Assembly: GCA_002398515.1 (NCBI GenBank)
Contig: DGZL01000166.1
Location: 12,885-68,340 of the forward strand
DNA: 55,456 bases
Origin: Firmicutes bacterium UBA4981
GTDB taxonomy: Bacteria > Bacillota > SHA-98 > UBA4971
Direction: 5' to 3'
The notes under the pieces are model-generated. The model saw nothing but the letters and a program-made list of their open reading frames with translations, was not told the origin of the DNA and made no database searches. Both the position numbers and the translations under genes were made by a program. Positions 47,261-55,295 of the stretch are shown here, in pieces; positions within the stretch are counted from its first letter, which is position 1, and each line of letters starts with the position of its first letter.

Positions 47261-47587
47261 ATGGCAGGCGAAGTAATTGAGGTCAAGGACGCAACATTTA
47301 AGGACGAGGTTCTAAGCGCTACTGAACCTGTGCTTGTAGATTTCTGGGCCGAGTGGTGCGGACCGTGCCGGATGATGGCTCCGGTAGTAGAGCAGATGGC
47401 ACAGGCGTACTCAGGCAAAATGAAGGTAGCGAAGTTGAATGTGGATGAGAATCCTGAATCAGCTGCTGCGTATGGAGTAATGAGTATACCTACACTTATT
47501 CTCTTCAAAGGCGGAGAAGCTGTGGAGCGATTCGTAGGGTTCAGGCCTAAGCAAGAACTGGCAAGGCTTGTCGACGCCAAGTTATGA
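47261..47587 (+). CDS. trxA: Thioredoxin
   Basis: 108 aa counted from ATG 47261 (RBS AAGGAAGGA). Active site [24 protein letters not shown]. Confidence 0.92.
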
Positions 47588-47819
47588 GAGGGTAATTGCG
47601 CGGGAATCCAGTTGTCAACCAGCATATGCCGTGCCCCCTGGGAGCGGGTGCACGTAGAGATTGTGGTTCCCAAGGATCGATATTCCTTGGGGTGCTTGCA
47701 AAGGTGGTTCTTAGAGATCGACATTTCTTCCTCCTCGATAGTGAACTGAGCTGCTTGTAGCGACTTATCTCGGGATTGGTTGACTCAACGGGTTAGTTGA
47801 CACATAAGATAAGTTCAAG

Positions 47820-47864
47820 GCGCCGCATCCAGCGTGTTTACAAGCTGAGTACCGGCGCTTTTTT
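47820..47864 (+). terminator. Candidate intrinsic terminator (branched GC stem plus T6), about 230 nt downstream of trxA
   Basis: GCGCCG...CAGC-gtgtttacaa-GCTG...CGGCGC followed by TTTTTT. Confidence 0.45.
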
Positions 47865-48014
47865 GATGGCCATATGCCTTTGAATTCTGCTCTGAAGCCG
47901 TTATATGGGGTGATTGCGTTATTGATGTCCGACCGGAGAGAATGAAGACGCGAGTCGGGGAGGAAAGATGATTCCCCTGGCGAAATAAGGCGTAGACACC
48001 ATGTAGGAGGTAAG

Positions 48015-48926
48015 ATGGATCCTATGAAAACCAGAATTGTGGAGTGTGTTCCTAATTTCAGCGAAGGACGAAGACCTGAGGTGGTACAGGAGATTGTCGA
48101 TGCAGTAAGGAGTGTTCCCGGAGTAAGACTTCTGGACCGATCTTCTGACGTAGACCATAATCGGTCCGTCCTGACCTTTGTGGGTGAACCAATGGCGGTA
48201 AAGGATGCAGCATTTAGGGCCATAGCTCGTGCTGCTGAACTTATCGATATGGAGAAGCACCAGGGAGAGCACCCACGTATCGGCTCTACAGATGTAGTTC
48301 CTTTTGTGCCTGTAAGGGGAGTCACAATAGGTGATTGTGTAGATCTGGCACGGGCGTTAGGCAAAGAAGTCGCAGAAAGACTCCACATTCCTGTATACCT
48401 TTATGAAGAAGCGGCTACCTCGGAAGACCGCCGAAATCTCGCTAATATCCGGAGAGGAGAATACGAAGGCCTCAAGAAAGAGATTAGTCTTCCGGAACGA
48501 CATCCTGACTTCGGCGAGCCTGTTATGCATCCTACTGCAGGCGCTATAGTCATAGGAGCCCGCAATTACCTGGTTGCTTACAACATCAATCTCAATACGC
48601 CAGATGTGGCTATTGCAAAGAAGATAGCTCGGCGAGTCAGAGCAAGCAGCGGCGGCTTGATGTATGTGAAAGCTCTCGGCATTATGCTGGAGGACAGGAA
48701 TTTGGCTCAGGTCTCCATGAACCTTACGAATTTCCGGAAGACTCCTATACATGTGGTTTTTAACTTAGTAAAGACAGAGGCTGAGCGTTACGGGGTATCT
48801 ATCGTCGGTAGTGAGGTGATAGGTCTTATACCTATGGATGCTCTCTTGGACGCTGCCCAACATTACCTTCGTCTCGAGGATTTCTCCGGAGAACGGGTGT
48901 TAGAGGCCAAAATATGGGGTGAATAG
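48015..48926 (+). CDS. Glutamate formimidoyltransferase (stand-alone FtcD N-terminal-type enzyme)
   Basis: IVECVPNFSEGRRPEVVQEIVDAV and HPRIGSTDVVPFVP motifs. RBS GTAGGAGGTAAG. Confidence 0.88.
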   Translation: MDPMKTRIVECVPNFSEGRRPEVVQEIVDAVRSVPGVRLLDRSSDVDHNRSVLTFVGEPMAVKDAAFRAIARAAELIDMEKHQGEHPRIGSTDVVPFVPVRGVTIGDCVDLARALGKEVAERLHIPVYLYEEAATSEDRRNLANIRRGEYEGLKKEISLPERHPDFGEPVMHPTAGAIVIGARNYLVAYNINLNTPDVAIAKKIARRVRASSGGLMYVKALGIMLEDRNLAQVSMNLTNFRKTPIHVVFNLVKTEAERYGVSIVGSEVIGLIPMDALLDAAQHYLRLEDFSGERVLEAKIWGE

Positions 48927-48980
48927 AGCCCAATTGAAATATGATGATTGCTCTCCCGGCAATGGAGGTTGATGATATTG

Positions 48981-50297
48981 ATGAACAGAGAGGGTTCGGG
49001 CATTCGTGCCGATCTGCTGGTCGAAAACGCGTCCGAACTTGTTACTCTTGCGGCTGACATACCCGCGAACAATGTCGCCGGGCCGCGCGTCGGCTCTTCC
49101 ATGAGGGACTTAGCGATAATCTCGGGCGGGAGCGTAGCTGCTTTCAACGGATACATCGTAGCTATGGGAAAAACCCATGAGGTCAGGGAAAGAGTTCAGC
49201 TAACGCCAAACGCAGAAGTAATAGACGCTACAGGCATGGTGGTCTTACCGGGATTCGTGGATTCTCACACCCATCTGGTTTTTGCGGGATCCAGAGAACA
49301 AGAGTTCATTCAAAGGGCTGAAGGCAAGACCTATCTTGAGATATTAGGAGGCGGCGGTGGAATCCTCTCTACAGTCAGAGCCACACGCGAGGCCTCTGAA
49401 TCCCATCTTCTGGCCTTGGGCCTTAAGAATCTGGACATTATGATGTGTCACGGAACGACTACTGTGGAGATTAAAAGCGGTTATGGGCTGTCTGTTGACG
49501 ACGAACTCAAAATTCTTCGCGTGATAAGAGATCTGGACAAGGTTCACCCGGTTGATGTGGTCAGCACGTTCATGGGCGCGCATGCCGTACCGACCGAATA
49601 TGCGGGAGATACGGAAGGATATGTAGAGCATGTAATAGATTCCATGCTTCCCGCAGTCAAAGAGGAGAGCCTGGCAGAGTTTTGCGATGTATTTTGCGAA
49701 AAAGGAGTTTTTTCGGTCGGGCAATCAAGACGGATATTAGAGGCAGGACTTGCTTTGGGCCTTCTCCCGAGAATTCACGCAGATGAAATGGCATCCTTGG
49801 GCGGAGCTGAATTGGCAGCGGAAATCGGAGCTGTCTCTGCAGAGCATTTGCTGTACGCTTCAGAAGAAGGCATGCGCAAAATGGCTGAAGCCGGGGTAAT
49901 AGCGACGCTTCTTCCGGCGACTTCGTTCACTCTCGGGCTGAGGCGGTACGCTGATGCCAGGGCTTTTATTTTGGCTGGGTGTCCTGTAGCTCTGGCTACC
50001 GATTTTAACCCGGGTACCAGTCCTACGTTATCTATGCAGTTTGTCATGAATGCAGCTGCCCTCGGTATGAAGCTCCACCCGGCAGAGATTATATGCGCGA
50101 GCACTATCAATGCTGCGTATGGATTGATGCGCGGAAATCTTGTAGGTAGTCTCGAGGTAGGGAAACTTGCGGATATGGTTGTTGTGGACACTGACACATA
50201 CCTAAAAATTCCGTATCAACTAGGCGTTAATATTGTGGACAAAGTAATCAAAAGAGGAAGGCTTGTTGTGAGCGAAGGGAGGCGAATCTCATCGTGA
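48981..50297 (+). CDS. hutI: Imidazolonepropionase
   Basis: PGFVDSHTHLVFAGSR, EIKSGYGL, RIHADE and ATDFNPGTSP amidohydrolase/HutI motifs. Start ATG 48972-48981 after GGAGG. The ORF-track TTG 48948 is upstream of the RBS. Confidence 0.9.
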   Translation: MNREGSGIRADLLVENASELVTLAADIPANNVAGPRVGSSMRDLAIISGGSVAAFNGYIVAMGKTHEVRERVQLTPNAEVIDATGMVVLPGFVDSHTHLVFAGSREQEFIQRAEGKTYLEILGGGGGILSTVRATREASESHLLALGLKNLDIMMCHGTTTVEIKSGYGLSVDDELKILRVIRDLDKVHPVDVVSTFMGAHAVPTEYAGDTEGYVEHVIDSMLPAVKEESLAEFCDVFCEKGVFSVGQSRRILEAGLALGLLPRIHADEMASLGGAELAAEIGAVSAEHLLYASEEGMRKMAEAGVIATLLPATSFTLGLRRYADARAFILAGCPVALATDFNPGTSPTLSMQFVMNAAALGMKLHPAEIICASTINAAYGLMRGNLVGSLEVGKLADMVVVDTDTYLKIPYQLGVNIVDKVIKRGRLVVSEGRRISS

Positions 50298-50971
50298 CCT
50301 TTAAAGAACGGACTGTCTCTGAGTTTATCCAAGCTGTTGCCGAAGGGTCCCCCACCCCCGGCGGAGGAACTGTCTCCGCTTTGATAGCAGGCCTTTCATC
50401 TGCTTTGGTGGGTATGGTAGGCTCTTTATCTGCTGCTCGATTACAGGCTAAGACGGCAGGAAAACGCGATGGAAAGAACAGTGACACTCAGTGCGAAAAT
50501 CGAGATCCCAAACACCTTATGCTCGATATGGTAAGCACTGCTAATCATCTCCAGATGCGTTTTTTGGCTCTTGCTGACGAGGATTCTACAGCTTATAACA
50601 GGGTAATTACTGCCTATAGATTACCTAAGAGCACTGAAGAGGAGAAGCAAGCCAGGTCTCTTGCTATCCAGGATGCGCTCAAGGAGGCGTGTCTTGTTCC
50701 GGCTCAAGTCGTCAAGTTTTCACTGGAAGTATTGCGTCTCACAGAGATCATGGTTGAACACGGGATGAAGAGCGCTATGTCAGACGTTGCAGTTGCCTGT
50801 CTTGCTGCCTGGGCCGGGATGAGAGGCGCGCATTTCAATGTAAGGATTAACTTGCCTTCCATTAAGGATGAGTCGTTCGTCAATCAGGTAGAGGGCGATA
50901 TGGCAATTTGCATGTCATCAGGCAGTGACATTTTTGAAGGGGTTATGGCGCAAATCGAACAGGCGCTGTAG
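50294..50971 (+). CDS. Formiminotetrahydrofolate cyclodeaminase (FTCD C-terminal-type)
   Basis: FIQAVAEGSPTPGGGTVSALIAGLSSALVGMV and AYNRVITAYRLPKSTEEEK. GTGA overlap with hutI. Confidence 0.85.
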   Translation: MTFKERTVSEFIQAVAEGSPTPGGGTVSALIAGLSSALVGMVGSLSAARLQAKTAGKRDGKNSDTQCENRDPKHLMLDMVSTANHLQMRFLALADEDSTAYNRVITAYRLPKSTEEEKQARSLAIQDALKEACLVPAQVVKFSLEVLRLTEIMVEHGMKSAMSDVAVACLAAWAGMRGAHFNVRINLPSIKDESFVNQVEGDMAICMSSGSDIFEGVMAQIEQAL

Positions 50972-51144
50972 GTTCGCGCGCGTTACATAACGTGTGTTAT
51001 GCTGTAATAAGCCGAGTAGGCGCGTGAGACTTGTAGGCGTAGAACGTATTATACTGCAAGCGGCATAGTCGTTCGAGATTCGTGGGTGTAACATGCGTTA
51101 TGCTGCATGTGGAATGTATCGCGCCAGGGGAGGAGTGATATGAC

Positions 51145-51666
51145 ATGTCGAAAAAAGCGCTTATGGTAATAGATATGCTACGAGATTTTATTGAGCCTGA
51201 CGGTAGACTTTATATCGGCACTACCGCAAAGAATGTAGTTGAAGCTGTCGGGCGGGAAATTGAGAAGGCCAGGTCTTGTCAATGGCCGATAATCTACGTA
51301 TGTGATACGCATAGCGAGGACGATTCGGAGTTTAGGATGTTCCCTTCTCATTGTGTTATGGGGACTCCCGGCGCGGACGTAGTTGATGAGCTGAAGCCTC
51401 ATCCGGGAGACAAGATTATTCCCAAACGCAGATACAGTGCCTTCTTCCAGACAGACTTGGATCTCACCTTGAGAGAACTTGATATAGATGAAATCGTGCT
51501 GGTAGGTGTTTGCACCAATATCTGTAACTTGTACACAGCAGCAGACGCCAGGATGCTGAATTACAAGGTTACAGCGCTTAGAGATTGCATGTCATCATTC
51601 GACGAAGCAGCACACGAGTTCGCTCTCAAAGAAATGGAGCAGACTCTGGGTGTAACCGTCGTATAA
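51145..51666 (+). CDS. Isochorismatase-family cysteine hydrolase (nicotinamidase-like)
   Basis: ALMVIDMLRDF (catalytic Asp), KRRYSAFFQTDLD (Lys), VGVCTNICNLYTAADA (nucleophile Cys). Confidence 0.85.
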   Translation: MSKKALMVIDMLRDFIEPDGRLYIGTTAKNVVEAVGREIEKARSCQWPIIYVCDTHSEDDSEFRMFPSHCVMGTPGADVVDELKPHPGDKIIPKRRYSAFFQTDLDLTLRELDIDEIVLVGVCTNICNLYTAADARMLNYKVTALRDCMSSFDEAAHEFALKEMEQTLGVTVV

Positions 51667-51878
51667 TACCTTTGGCGTGCCTAACGTAAGCCCGTGGCAT
51701 GAAAACAAACGCAACTATATAGAGCCATATTCATGGGCTGCAGTCTGTTTGTTGACGGTCTGACCCCGCGCGGGCCTGCGTACCAAGAGCAAATCAGCAG
51801 ACAGACGGGGAAACAATCAGACCCATGTAATTGACTAAGGCTACATTTAACTAATGCTATCAACGAAGTTGCCAAGGA

Positions 51879-53141
51879 GTGATAACCCTGAAAGAAAGCA
51901 GTGGATTGCAGCAGAATAGACATCATAATGCCCGCGCTCTGATAATTGAATCTAAACGCGACATAGCTTCTGAAATGGAGAGAATCGGTGTCTCCCCTGA
52001 AGGCATAAGGATCATGGCGAAAAAGGGTGTCTTTCGGGTAGTATTGCTTGAGCAAGTATCCTTGAAACAGGCAACAATCATTAAGCAGGAAATGTTGTCA
52101 AAAGGGGGAGACGCTGCTGTAAACGCCAGAGTAGCTTCTCTTACCGGGGATTTCACAGATATCCTGCTCATGGGCACAATCAGTCAGCTTCGCAGGGCCT
52201 CAGAGGGACTCATGCGCCAACCTTTTGGCTTGCGTCAAATCGCAGAAGAGATCCTGGAGGCGATCAATGCCCAGGAACCCTCCACAGGCAGGATCCTTCA
52301 ACTCGGAAGGCATGCTTTGACATTAGGCAACAAGACCTATATCATGGGCATTCTCAATACGACTCCTGACTCGTTCTCTGACGGAGGCACACACATGACT
52401 GTAGACGCAGCAGTAGAACATGCGTGGCGTCTTGTGGAAGAGGGAGCGGACATTATTGATATCGGCGGCGAGTCCACAAGGCCGGGTTCCGCTCCTACGC
52501 CTTTAGCAGAAGAAATCCGTAGGGTGGTCCCTGTTATCGAGGAGCTCGGGAAGGATTTTCCGGCGCCTATTTCAGTGGATACGTATAAGAGTGAAGTAGC
52601 TGAAGCAGCTCTCGCCGCAGGCGCCCACATGATTAACGATATTTCAGGTCTGGCTACAGACCCTCGTCTTGGGGAGGTTGTGGCTGAGGCCAAAGTCCCA
52701 ATCGTGCTCATGCACATGAAAGGCCGGCCAAAAGATATGCAGGAGAATCCTGAATATGAATCAGTCGTATCTGAGGTGGCGGGATTTCTCCGCGCTTCTG
52801 TTGCCCGGGCTAAGGAATATGGAATACTCTCTGAGAATGTGCTCATTGATCCGGGAATCGGGTTCGGCAAGACTTGCGCCCATAACCTTGAACTGCTGAG
52901 GCGCCTGAAGGAACTGAGGAGTCTTGGTTATCCAATACTCATAGGCACATCCCGTAAGTCGTTCATAGGAAGGACGCTGGGACTTCCGGTGGAAGACAGA
53001 GTCGAAGGCACGTCTGCCACTGTTGCCCTTGCGATAGCGTCCGGTGTCGATATTGTCCGTGTTCACGATGTTAAGTACATGGCCAGAGTGGCTCGGATGT
53101 CTGATGCTATCGTGAGGGGAGGGAATGTCTGTGAAGGGTGA
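51879..53141 (+). CDS. folP: Dihydropteroate synthase with an N-terminal extension of about 130 aa
   Basis: The core starts at YIMGILNTTPDSFSDGG. DIIDIGGESTRPG, SVDTYK, INDISG, IDPGIGFGKT. The start is uncertain: GTG 51879 overlaps its own AAGGAG. Confidence 0.88.
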   Translation: MITLKESSGLQQNRHHNARALIIESKRDIASEMERIGVSPEGIRIMAKKGVFRVVLLEQVSLKQATIIKQEMLSKGGDAAVNARVASLTGDFTDILLMGTISQLRRASEGLMRQPFGLRQIAEEILEAINAQEPSTGRILQLGRHALTLGNKTYIMGILNTTPDSFSDGGTHMTVDAAVEHAWRLVEEGADIIDIGGESTRPGSAPTPLAEEIRRVVPVIEELGKDFPAPISVDTYKSEVAEAALAAGAHMINDISGLATDPRLGEVVAEAKVPIVLMHMKGRPKDMQENPEYESVVSEVAGFLRASVARAKEYGILSENVLIDPGIGFGKTCAHNLELLRRLKELRSLGYPILIGTSRKSFIGRTLGLPVEDRVEGTSATVALAIASGVDIVRVHDVKYMARVARMSDAIVRGGNVCEG

Positions 53142-53499
53142 TAGGATAACCCTAAGTAACATGGTGTTCTATGGGTATCATGGGGTGTTCGAAGGCGAAA
53201 AGGAGCTTGGGCAGAGATTCGAAGTGGATGTCGAATTGCACATGAGCTTCTCGGGTCCGGGACAAACCGACGATTTGGAGCAGAGCGTCAATTACGTTGA
53301 CGTGTACACAATTGTGCAGGATATTGTCCAGGAGAGGACTTACAACTTGATTGAAGCTGTAGCTGAAAACATTGCAGGGGAGATCTTGTCAGCATACTCA
53401 GTGGATTATGTGGTTGTAAGAGTGAGAAAGCCCAGTGTCCCAATGGGTGGCGTGATAGACCATGTTGAGGTGGAAATCACCAGGCACAGCCGGGGGTGA
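53125..53499 (+). CDS. folB: Dihydroneopterin aldolase
   Basis: FYGYHGVFEGEKELGQRFEVDVEL and NYVDVY...LIEAVAENIA. Confidence 0.9.
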   Translation: MSVKGDRITLSNMVFYGYHGVFEGEKELGQRFEVDVELHMSFSGPGQTDDLEQSVNYVDVYTIVQDIVQERTYNLIEAVAENIAGEILSAYSVDYVVVRVRKPSVPMGGVIDHVEVEITRHSRG

Positions 53500-54836
53500 C
53501 AGCAACGCGCGCACACGCATATTTAGGATTTGGCTCCAACTTAGGAGAAAGGCGAGAGAACATCGCTAAGGGTCTGGCCGTGTTACATGAGTCCGGGAGG
53601 GTAGAGGTTGCTAAGGTATCTTCTCTCTATGAGACAGAACCTGTGGGCTACACTGAACAGGGGCTATTCTTGAACGCTGTTGCCCGGGTTGAGACCGATC
53701 TTTCGCCTCAAGACTTGTTGTCCCTCTGCAAAGACGTAGAAGTTCAACTTGGCCGAAAGGCAACGGTAAGATGGGGGCCGAGGATTCTTGATATCGACAT
53801 TCTCATGTACTTTGTGAAATCAGGCGATCCTCCTCCGGACGATAGTGAAAACAGCACTCAGATAAAGATAGATACTCCGACCCTGACCCTTCCTCACCCT
53901 CGGATGTGGGAGAGGGGGTTTGTCATTATTCCATTAGCTGAGGTAAATCCCAATCTCTTGATGCCTGACGGACGTCAAATCAAATCCCTTATCCGAGACC
54001 TCAGTATCTGGACAGGCCTTCACTTATTTGAGACCGGACATTGGCGGCAGGGAGGCGGCCTAAACCGTAAGGGCCGGCGAGTAGTGCGGTTTACCGAGGT
54101 AGAATCAACAAATACCGTAGCTGCTAATCTTGCTTCTAGTGGTGCCGCTGAAGGCACTTGCGTCATAGCAAAAACCCAAAGCGCAGGTAGGGGAAGGCGA
54201 GGACGACTATGGCATTCGCCCCCCGGTGGACTATGGCTTTCCCTGGTGCTGAGGCCTAAGGTTCAATCACAAGACGTGGCCTGGCTGTCTCTTATCGCCG
54301 GTGTTGCTGTGTCTTCTGCCATTCGGGATACGTTTAGGCTTCCTGCAGTAGTCAAGTGGCCCAATGATGTGCTGGTCTCCGGGAAGAAGGTATGCGGGAT
54401 ATTGCCTGAGACTAGGTTTATCGGAGATAAGATGGACTTTGCCGTTGTTGGAATAGGAGTTAATGTCGCAATTGACATAGATTTGCTTCCACTTGAGGTT
54501 CGGGAGACTTGCGCAACTTTGGTAAGTCCCGATCATCCTCATGCCTCCGAAGCCCGGGAGGCATTGATAGTGTCCATATTGGACAACTTTTCTCTATTGT
54601 ACAAACAGTTTTTGTCCGAGGGTTTTTTGGAGATACTGCAAAAGGTAAGAGAGTACTGTGACATGCTTGGACGGGAAGTTACCGTCTCGCGACTTGGAAC
54701 GCCTATTCAGGGGATTGCAGTAGACATAGACTCTGATGCCGGGCTGATTATTCGCACTAAGTCAGGGGAAGATGTTCATGTAGTCTCCGGGGAGGTAAGC
54801 GTTGGGGTTCCAGGCGCAGGTTACGCCTGTGAATGA
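53496..54836 (+). CDS. folK: Fusion protein: N-terminal HPPK (FolK) and C-terminal class-I biotin-protein ligase (BirA catalytic plus C-terminal domains)
   Basis: Residues 1 to about 165: AYLGFGSNLGERREN, SLYETEPVG, GPRILDIDIL, LPHPRMWERGFV. From about residue 195: EVESTN, QSAGRGRRGRLWHSPPGG, VKWPNDVLVSGKKVCGIL, GIGVNV. One uninterrupted frame. Confidence 0.8.
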   Translation: MTATRAHAYLGFGSNLGERRENIAKGLAVLHESGRVEVAKVSSLYETEPVGYTEQGLFLNAVARVETDLSPQDLLSLCKDVEVQLGRKATVRWGPRILDIDILMYFVKSGDPPPDDSENSTQIKIDTPTLTLPHPRMWERGFVIIPLAEVNPNLLMPDGRQIKSLIRDLSIWTGLHLFETGHWRQGGGLNRKGRRVVRFTEVESTNTVAANLASSGAAEGTCVIAKTQSAGRGRRGRLWHSPPGGLWLSLVLRPKVQSQDVAWLSLIAGVAVSSAIRDTFRLPAVVKWPNDVLVSGKKVCGILPETRFIGDKMDFAVVGIGVNVAIDIDLLPLEVRETCATLVSPDHPHASEAREALIVSILDNFSLLYKQFLSEGFLEILQKVREYCDMLGREVTVSRLGTPIQGIAVDIDSDAGLIIRTKSGEDVHVVSGEVSVGVPGAGYACE

Positions 54837-54839
54837 GGG

Positions 54840-55295
54840 GTGGCATGTGGAATGTCTCCAAGAATCCTTGCTCTTGTCATCGCTTTGGTGGCCGGTGTAT
54901 CCATGGCGATACAGGGATCAATTAATACCAAACTCGGACAAGTTATTGGTAATTGGGAGGCCATTTTCGTCGTGCAAGTAGTGGGCCTTGCCACTATTTT
55001 GATCCTCTTATTCGTGTTTGGTATAGGGAAAGGGAACCTTGGCCGCATGGCCCAGGGGCCCTGGTACTCTCCGCTTGGCGGTCTGATAGGTGTCCTCATT
55101 GTCTGGGGTGTTGTCTTTAGCATACCTAAACTGGGTGTGGCGGTAGCGACTACCTCCATTATTGTGGGACAAACCCTTACAGCTCTCATCATAGATCATT
55201 TCGGGCTTTTCGGTCTAAGTCCGGTGCCTTTCACATGGCTTAAAGCGCTGGGCTTGGTTCTTCTCGCTGCAGGTGCAGGGCTGCTTTTAGGCTGA
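54840..55295 (+). CDS. DMT-superfamily membrane protein, DUF606/YdcZ family
   Basis: 151 aa, 5 hydrophobic spans. GVSMAIQGSINTKLG and IIVGQTLTALIIDHFGLFG. Confidence 0.75.
   Translation: MACGMSPRILALVIALVAGVSMAIQGSINTKLGQVIGNWEAIFVVQVVGLATILILLFVFGIGKGNLGRMAQGPWYSPLGGLIGVLIVWGVVFSIPKLGVAVATTSIIVGQTLTALIIDHFGLFGLSPVPFTWLKALGLVLLAAGAGLLLG

Follow-up and report, generated by a model that had tools for sequence, protein, structure and literature searches.

How did an enzyme of folate synthesis come to share one reading frame with the enzyme that attaches biotin to carboxylases, and does that frame encode two working enzymes or something else? The question is raised by a gene at the end of a folate operon in a 55,456-nucleotide stretch of Firmicutes bacterium UBA4981 (GenBank assembly GCA_002398515.1, contig DGZL01000166.1, positions 12,885 to 68,340 of the forward strand), which we call the window and from whose first letter all window coordinates are counted. 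The original prediction, made from the letters of the window, held that one frame of 446 codons carries an HPPK (FolK) followed by a class I biotin protein ligase (BPL). Pfam and NCBIfam profiles bear this out, and the fusion is real and recurrent in uncultured Bacillota. The gene and its parts are laid out as follows.

53496..54836, + strand: HPPK-BPL fusion gene, a single open reading frame (ORF) of 446 codons whose GTG start overlaps the TGA stop of folB (GTGA).
53496..54044, + strand: HPPK (FolK) module, residues 1-183, identified by Pfam, TIGR01498, alignment with E. coli HPPK and a confident AlphaFold2 (AF2) fold.
53811..53882, + strand: acidic, Pro-rich HPPK insertion, residues ~106-129, a surface hairpin between the DIDIL and LPHP motifs, marked by a gap against 8sk1, 3qbc and 5etk.
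54045..54071, + strand: Gly/Arg-rich linker, residues 184-192, with no stop codon and no frame shift.
54072..54485, + strand: BPL catalytic domain, residues ~193-330, identified by profiles, alignment with P. horikoshii BPL (PhBPL) and Foldseek.
54084..54086, + strand: in-frame GTG (codon 197), preceded at 10 nt by a weak AAGGG; a candidate internal start.
54666..54806, + strand: BPL C-terminal SH3-like cap, residues 391-437, identified by Pfam BPL_C (E 2.4e-9) and by beta strands at 394-436 in the AF2 model.

Both enzymes were recovered by the profile scan, which also supports the boundaries of the two halves: in the 446-aa protein, Pfam placed HPPK at residues 9-152 (E 5e-38), BPL_LplA_LipB at 202-323 (E 1.4e-23) and BPL_C at 391-437. 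Every HPPK and BPL motif quoted in the original prediction was found in the translation. The HPPK half scored 130.5 bits against PF01288 (cut-off 25.7), covering profile positions 1-116 of 116, and 126.5 bits against TIGR01498 (folK; cut-off 54.1), covering positions 1-128 of 128, and it aligns end to end with residues 6-147 of the solved HPPK 8sk1. On the printed alignment with E. coli HPPK, residues N55, E77, R82, R92, D95, D97, H115, R121 and F123 correspond to N60, E82, R87, R96, D99, D101, H134, R140 and F142 of the window protein, and an alignment of 27 fused proteins shows no variation at the mapped pterin, ATP and Mg residues.

The ligase half scored 83.7 bits against PF03099 and 37.4 bits against PF02237 (cut-off 21 for each), and 184.6 bits against TIGR00121 (birA_ligase; cut-off 83.1). 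It aligns with residues 10-232 of the 235 in PhBPL, on which Foldseek superposes it with a target-normalised TM-score (TMt) of 0.88 and a root-mean-square deviation of 2.2 Å. Its motifs are STN at 204-206, the biotin-binding loop GRGRRGRLW at 231-239, KWPND at 287-291 and GIGVN at 319-323. PhBPL R48, R51, D104 and K111, the positions at which deposited PhBPL structures carry mutations, align with R234, R237, D291 and the catalytic lysine K298, which also corresponds to K183 of E. coli; the mapped BPL residues are invariant in 27 aligned fused proteins with identities down to 33%. A Pfam scan at E ≤ 0.01 found no helix-turn-helix (HTH) family in the window protein, while the same library matched HTH_11 in class II relatives, and no Pan_kinase domain was matched by Pfam in the window protein. 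Judged by its sequence, the ligase half is a class-I-type core without a DNA-binding domain, and the whole protein joins two complete, apparently intact, unrelated enzymes in one chain.

The pattern of selection follows this division. Compared with the orthologue at locus L003, which is 80% identical to the window protein, the ratio of non-synonymous to synonymous substitution rates (dN/dS) was 0.36 in the HPPK core, 0.09 in the C-terminal part of the HPPK half, and 0.14, 0.13 and 0.35 in three ligase segments. The low dN/dS in both enzyme halves, against a value of ~1.2 in the linker, indicates that selection acts on the two enzymes and not on the linker. The linker itself is shorter than the ~30 residues first proposed: the HPPK fold ends around W183 and the ligase core begins around G193, which is aligned with PhBPL residue 10, leaving ~10 residues (184-192). 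The accompanying description of the junction, as free of any stop codon or ATG and holding a single GTG at 54084, was accurate. Base composition is homogeneous across the HPPK/BPL junction. In an AF2 model built from alignments of fused proteins (mean predicted local distance difference test, pLDDT, 85.5; predicted template modelling score, pTM, 0.84), low confidence was confined to the HPPK insertion at residues 112-117, the linker (pLDDT < 50 at residues 185-192) and the tail. P0022, a fusion 38% identical to the window protein, was modelled with a pLDDT of 91.3, a pTM of 0.89 and a confident junction. A Foldseek search of the PDB returned no solved chain that spans both halves (best query-normalised TM-score 0.50).

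We then asked how widely the architecture occurs. A search of 5.8 billion proteins found fused HPPK-BPL proteins down to 33% identity, and when 1.84 billion representatives (50% identity) were scanned without a filter, the 150 best matches included at least 23 fusions. Matches in relatives do cover both halves: 51 retrieved proteins carry both the HPPK and the BPL domains, and the full-length fusion is present in five GTDB species representatives. The 90%-identity clusters around the window protein hold many more members of 446 aa on separate contigs. Where carriers have names, they are metagenome bins assigned to Bacillota, Firmicutes, Clostridiales or Aneurinibacillus, along with one labelled 'Betaproteobacteria'. 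This last locus (L007 / P0026; JBLNCL010000011.1, bin 'Betaproteobacteria bacterium MAG126') encodes a fusion 70% identical to P0022, which comes from a Bacillota bin, and its folP carries a Clostridia-type N-terminal extension. Given these two features, the label probably reflects an error of binning or classification.

Within the window's own syntenic clade, defined by shared flanks (FTCD genes and an isochorismatase-family gene on one side, ydcZ and a GAF-histidine kinase gene on the other), the locus occurs in three states. HPPK and ligase are fused in the window, L003, L004 and L083. They are split in L090, where the HPPK ORF stops at a TAG in the linker and a 279-aa ligase opens, without a change of frame, at an ATG two codons downstream. 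Since three HPPK-only clusters (P0034, P0037 and P0038) end at a point homologous to the L090 stop, this stop is inherited and not an error, and the shared frame and alignable linker argue for a secondary fission, that is, a derived state. At L088, the locus consists of the isochorismatase gene, a 257-aa stand-alone ligase and ydcZ, with folP, folB and folK absent, and no variant of the locus in the clade lacks the ligase. The split and ligase-only relatives imply that the ligase works without the kinase, that the covalent link is dispensable and that the halves are separable.

Based on the observed architecture, intact active-site residues, purifying selection, recurrence and synteny, we put at roughly three in four the probability that the gene encodes a genuine bifunctional protein, in which two autonomous enzymes stand end to end following the fusion of neighbouring genes, and the ligase is expressed from the folate operon. 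The GTGA overlap between the start of the fusion gene and the stop of folB, which was reported from the outset and agrees with the ORF coordinates, is the usual sign of translational coupling. Translation would begin at this folB-coupled GTG and yield one polypeptide of ~49 kDa, whose N-terminal HPPK would pyrophosphorylate the 6-hydroxymethyl-7,8-dihydropterin delivered by FolB, supplying FolP, and whose C-terminal ligase would make biotinyl-5'-AMP and move biotin onto carboxylase carrier domains. As the last cistron of the folate operon, the ligase would be produced at a level that follows this operon, and because the protein has no HTH or other DNA-binding domain, BirA-type repression of biotin genes would not be expected of it. 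Several points weigh against this reading. Every carrier of the fusion is an uncultured metagenome bin; either half could in principle be redundant if a second birA or folK lies outside the 55-kb window; we infer that the ligase half depends on the folK start, and minor initiation at codon 197 is possible; finally, both AF2 models predict a compact body rather than beads on a string, which would fit a functional coupling of the two enzymes.

The simplest challenge is that two ordinary neighbouring genes only look fused, an indel from sequencing or assembly having deleted the stop/start pair between them, and one orthologous sub-lineage (L090; P0034, P0037, P0038) does have such a pair in the linker. 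The frame of the window gene is nevertheless intact in three assemblies: its counterparts in ERZ724044 and ERZ922860, which derive from other samples, differ by 3 substitutions and no indel. L001 and L002 share this uninterrupted frame, homopolymers in the junction do not exceed 3 nt, and the fused architecture is kept in dozens of clusters and on many contigs. We thus give an artefact practically no credence: the three agreeing assemblies, the lack of an indel-prone run and the wide conservation rule it out. A real frame might still give two products if initiation at the GTG of codon 197 released a stand-alone class I ligase besides or instead of the fusion, the arrangement then being largely one of gene overlap. 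This GTG, the one start codon that lies in frame near the junction, is preceded by the AAGGG noted above, is an ATG in L003 and corresponds to Met in 7 of 10 close cluster representatives, and a natural stand-alone ligase (P0018) begins just a few residues upstream of the same position. In more distant fusions, however, the equivalent codon is CTT, CAG, TTC or TTA (L083, L004, L085 and L093, respectively), and a hydrophobic residue is expected at 197 regardless, as it aligns with Ile14 in the first beta strand of PhBPL. Starting there would also drop the residues aligned with PhBPL 10-13, and no promoter-like or terminator-like signal in the junction rose above the shuffle background. Overall, we regard internal initiation as an unlikely account of the gene.

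A single chain could also contain one enzyme that no longer matters, for instance if another birA or folK elsewhere had left one half as a decayed or redundant pseudo-enzyme and the window copy were drifting. One related lineage, L088, has indeed lost the fol genes at the locus. Against such decay, the mapped catalytic residues are all invariant, dN/dS is well below 1 in both halves, tblastn of the HPPK and BPL halves against the 55-kb window revealed no second copy and nothing with E < 0.02, and the ligase persists in all variants of the locus; we therefore hold this to be very improbable. The opposite possibility is that the two halves form an integrated enzyme, with HPPK, whether or not it still acts as a kinase, serving as a functional N-terminal accessory domain that shapes ligase activity or couples it to pterin or ATP binding. 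The whole-chain pTM is high in two distant fusions, with a confident linker in the second, whereas we estimate that a two-domain chain of undefined orientation would reach ~0.55, and by our own estimate the inter-domain error is low. The linker is very short in most lineages (~0-20 aa), and the yeast class III enzyme, with its GATase-like domain, shows that a BPL can carry an N-terminal domain of enzyme origin (PMC12582158). On the other hand, AF2 packing of short-linked domains is no evidence of function, the linker ranges among relatives from ~0 to ~70 low-complexity residues and is interrupted by a stop codon in L090, the ligase survives without HPPK in L088, and the HPPK catalytic residues are invariant, as expected of a working kinase. 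An accessory role for HPPK accordingly has only a slim chance in our view, and the same low odds apply to the more specific idea of a compact two-enzyme body in which occupancy of one site by pterin or ATP modulates protein biotinylation, or the reverse. If true, this would define a fourth structural class of biotin protein ligase and would establish a cross-talk between folate and biotin cofactor supply.

If two autonomous enzymes it is, the genomic neighbourhood offers a route by which they may have been joined. In every fusion lineage examined, the fusion gene closes a folP-folB operon, which in the window is arranged as follows.

51879..53141, + strand: folP (dihydropteroate synthase), first gene of the operon core (Pterin_bind at residues 156-396; TIGR01496, 342 bits).
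53125..53499, + strand: folB (dihydroneopterin aldolase), translationally coupled to the fusion gene (Pfam FolB, E 2.4e-37).
54840..55295, + strand: gene for a ydcZ-type half-size DMT membrane protein (Pfam DMT_YdcZ, E 5.8e-36).

The upstream flanks of the fusion operons vary (for example ftsH or an isochorismatase-family gene); on the downstream side, the fusion gene of a distant lineage (L093) overlaps with bioY at its end. Six unfused Clostridia among the GTDB loci retrieved via the ligase half encode HPPK and BirA on one strand, with HPPK ~1.0-1.4 kb upstream. In two of these analysed in detail (Herbivorax L014 and L009), the order is folP-folB-folK, an ORF of ~205 aa, then a class II birA with HTH, followed by coaX in L014 and by an amidohydrolase gene in L009. 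L087 has a PolyA_pol-family gene farther upstream, beyond three intervening genes, and panC and panB downstream on the opposite strand, a neighbourhood that recalls cca-birA-panBCD of B. subtilis and pcnB-folK-panBC of E. coli. Five cluster representatives, together with P0031 and P0035, have an HPPK-HTH-BPL architecture, and coaX directly follows one of these loci; such proteins could be intermediates on the proposed fusion route. The original prediction saw no metabolic logic in linking the two enzymes. This holds insofar as no pathway logic is apparent, but a simple answer exists: folK and birA are conserved neighbours in Clostridia, and it is because they are old neighbours, and not because of any shared chemistry, that they would have fused. 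Specifically, folK and birA would have been brought together within the Bacillota ftsH-fol-birA-coaX region by loss of the DNA between them, and in the window lineage the intervening ORF and the HTH of BirA would both have been lost, joining HPPK to BPL. An origin from an arrangement like that of L014 and L009 would require loss of the ~205-aa ORF.

In a neighbour-joining tree of 255 ligase domains, computed without bootstrap, fused proteins fell into ~9-14 all-fused clades among class I and class II enzymes. This suggests that the fusion arose in several lineages and in two architectures, the tree count itself being not robust given the deep divergence. The corresponding HPPK tree was uninformative, as the set included just 5 unfused HPPKs.

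Several neighbours deserve a description of their own. The ORF between folK and birA (L014 9171-9782 and L009 9066-9698, + strand) encodes a conserved protein whose start follows MxEVYxYVPVxExENxVECGLKLSKW, and it has no Pfam or NCBIfam match. The ydcZ-type gene begins 4-16 nt after the ligase stop and is linked to the ligase in the window, L003, L004, L083, L088 and L090, and its slot is the one occupied by bioY in L093. By analogy with this replacement, one idea is that the YdcZ homologue, for which NCBIfam gave no match, may transport biotin or a vitamin. FolP carries an N-terminal extension of ~150 aa (window 51879-52340, + strand), which recurs at 27-60% identity in the folP of numerous Clostridia-type loci (L037, L011, L076, L009, L014, L019, L093 and L007) and has no Pfam, NCBIfam or PDB sequence match. 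At two loci of distant fusion lineages, L087 (6869-8011) and L092 (5208-6380), folP and folB are themselves fused into one ORF of 380-390 aa with Pterin_bind and FolB domains, so that four activities are carried by just two polypeptides.

Directly upstream of folP in the window clade is a gene for an isochorismatase-family cysteine hydrolase (window 51145-51666, + strand). It also occurs, at 61% identity, in an unrelated fusion lineage from an Aneurinibacillus bin (L005/L085 5822-6343). The protein falls below every NCBIfam equivalog cut-off and may be a hydrolase related to folate or para-aminobenzoate. Just upstream of the folate operon, genes for an FTCD_N/FTCD formiminotransferase, an amidohydrolase and an FTCD_C cyclodeaminase (window ~48015-50971, + strand) are syntenic across the clade. 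FTCD genes serve tetrahydrofolate-dependent catabolism of formimino groups. No Rfam family matched at its gathering score anywhere in the window and none matched at E ≤ 1 over 47500-52200, so no riboswitch or other RNA element was found for the operon. The first 43,000 nucleotides of the window (1-43000) hold ordinary genes, namely glmU-prs-ctc-pth, a small acid-soluble spore protein gene, an acyl-CoA dehydrogenase gene with electron-transfer flavoprotein (ETF) genes, sugar-utilisation genes, and a complete flagellar/motility operon that ends in fliA-type sigma and PilZ genes. Prs is ~60-64% identical to its homologues in the nearest named genera, Carboxydothermus, Desulfotomaculum and Thermincola. 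Together, the spore protein gene, the flagellar operon and the divergent Prs point to a deep, uncultured, spore-forming lineage of Bacillota.

The HPPK half has one further peculiarity, an extra acidic, Pro-rich segment just before LPHP. The segment is real, as first noticed: the solved HPPKs 8sk1, 3qbc (S. aureus) and 5etk (E. coli) are 14-15 residues shorter at this point. It is limited to the window's clade, the distant fusions being without it, and within the clade its length ranges from ~15 aa in the window to ~150 low-complexity residues in L090. Compared with L003, the insertion shows a dN/dS of 0.42 and 50% identity, and it is predicted to be disordered (pLDDT < 50 at residues 112-117). 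We read it as a tolerated, fast-evolving surface loop. In sister lineages (L090 4635-5594, P0038, and also P0034, P0037, P0012 and P0013), the hairpin has grown to ~100-150 Gly/Ala/Asp-rich residues within an otherwise intact HPPK, an unusually large tolerated expansion.

The fusion bears on how these genomes are read. NCBI names the protein just 'biotin--[acetyl-CoA-carboxylase] ligase' and JGI just 'BirA family ... ligase', which leaves the HPPK step invisible, and metabolic reconstruction based on names could wrongly call folate synthesis incomplete. With an essential ligase wired into a folate operon and the repressor function of BirA apparently lost, biotin regulation would have to differ in these organisms. 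The locus is a clean, datable case of fusion and re-fission between neighbouring cofactor genes, and its fused, HTH-retaining, split and ligase-only forms in one syntenic clade are natural controls with which the role of N-terminal domains of the ligase can be tested.

Compared with known systems, the fusion is new, while both of its component enzymes are known and well understood. The original prediction did not recognise the architecture as a described one, and we found no description of it in the literature on HPPK/folK with BirA or biotin ligase, on folate gene fusions or on BPL classification; two comparative surveys of folate synthesis (PMC1971073, PMC4224340) make no mention of biotin or BirA. 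As a stand-alone enzyme, HPPK/FolK (E. coli 1HKA/1DY3, S. aureus 3QBC, 8SK1) has the same full-length fold, the same substrate and Mg residues and the same place in the operon after folB, with identity to 8sk1 of up to ~58% as counted on the printed alignment. Unlike it, the window protein has a disordered hairpin insertion of ~15 aa and an entire second enzyme at its C-terminus. HPPK is a frequent fusion partner, as in FolB-FolK (S. pneumoniae SulD, 2CG8), FolK-FolP (Francisella 3MCM, plants, Plasmodium) and Fol1 (yeast 2BMB). These known folate fusions join consecutive steps of one pathway, whereas the window encodes FolB and FolP in ORFs of their own and pairs HPPK with an enzyme of another cofactor system.

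On the ligase side, class I enzymes (P. horikoshii PDB 1WNL/2EJF; M. tuberculosis) share with the window protein the catalytic domain, the C-terminal cap and the lack of a DNA-binding domain, at 36-38% identity and a TMt of 0.84-0.88, with R48, R51, D104 and K111 conserved. Class I is by definition a minimal two-module enzyme (PMC12582158), however, and the window protein adds an N-terminal HPPK of ~183 residues. Class II BirA, the ligase/repressor of E. coli and S. aureus, has the common ligase core and, like the window protein, an extra N-terminal domain attached by a short linker. Class II enzymes are also the nearest unfused relatives of several fusion lineages, some of which keep the HTH. 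In BirA this N-terminal domain is a winged HTH, whereas in the window protein, which has no HTH, it is a kinase fold, and the window protein reached 80-128 bits against the PRK11886 equivalogs for class II BirA, below their cut-offs of 293-489. Class III eukaryotic enzymes (yeast Bpl1, human HCS) likewise have in front of the ligase core a large GATase-like domain, itself an enzyme fold in origin (PMC12582158). In yeast this domain has no GATase activity (PMC12582158); it is catalytically dead and yet required for the ligase, whereas in the window protein the catalytic residues of HPPK are all retained, and natural forms of the ligase without HPPK exist. The window architecture thus lies outside BPL classes I-III as defined in PMC12582158, and extends the range of domain architectures beyond the three recognised structural classes. 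Its nearest conceptual precedent is BirA-CoaX 'Baf' (PRK13325), in which a biotin ligase is likewise fused to an unrelated cofactor-pathway kinase from a neighbouring gene. The window protein scored 63.9 bits against this model (cut-off 761 bits), with the ligase part alone matching: the kinase of BirA-CoaX is a type III pantothenate kinase placed C-terminally, whereas that of the window protein is N-terminal and a different partner enzyme.

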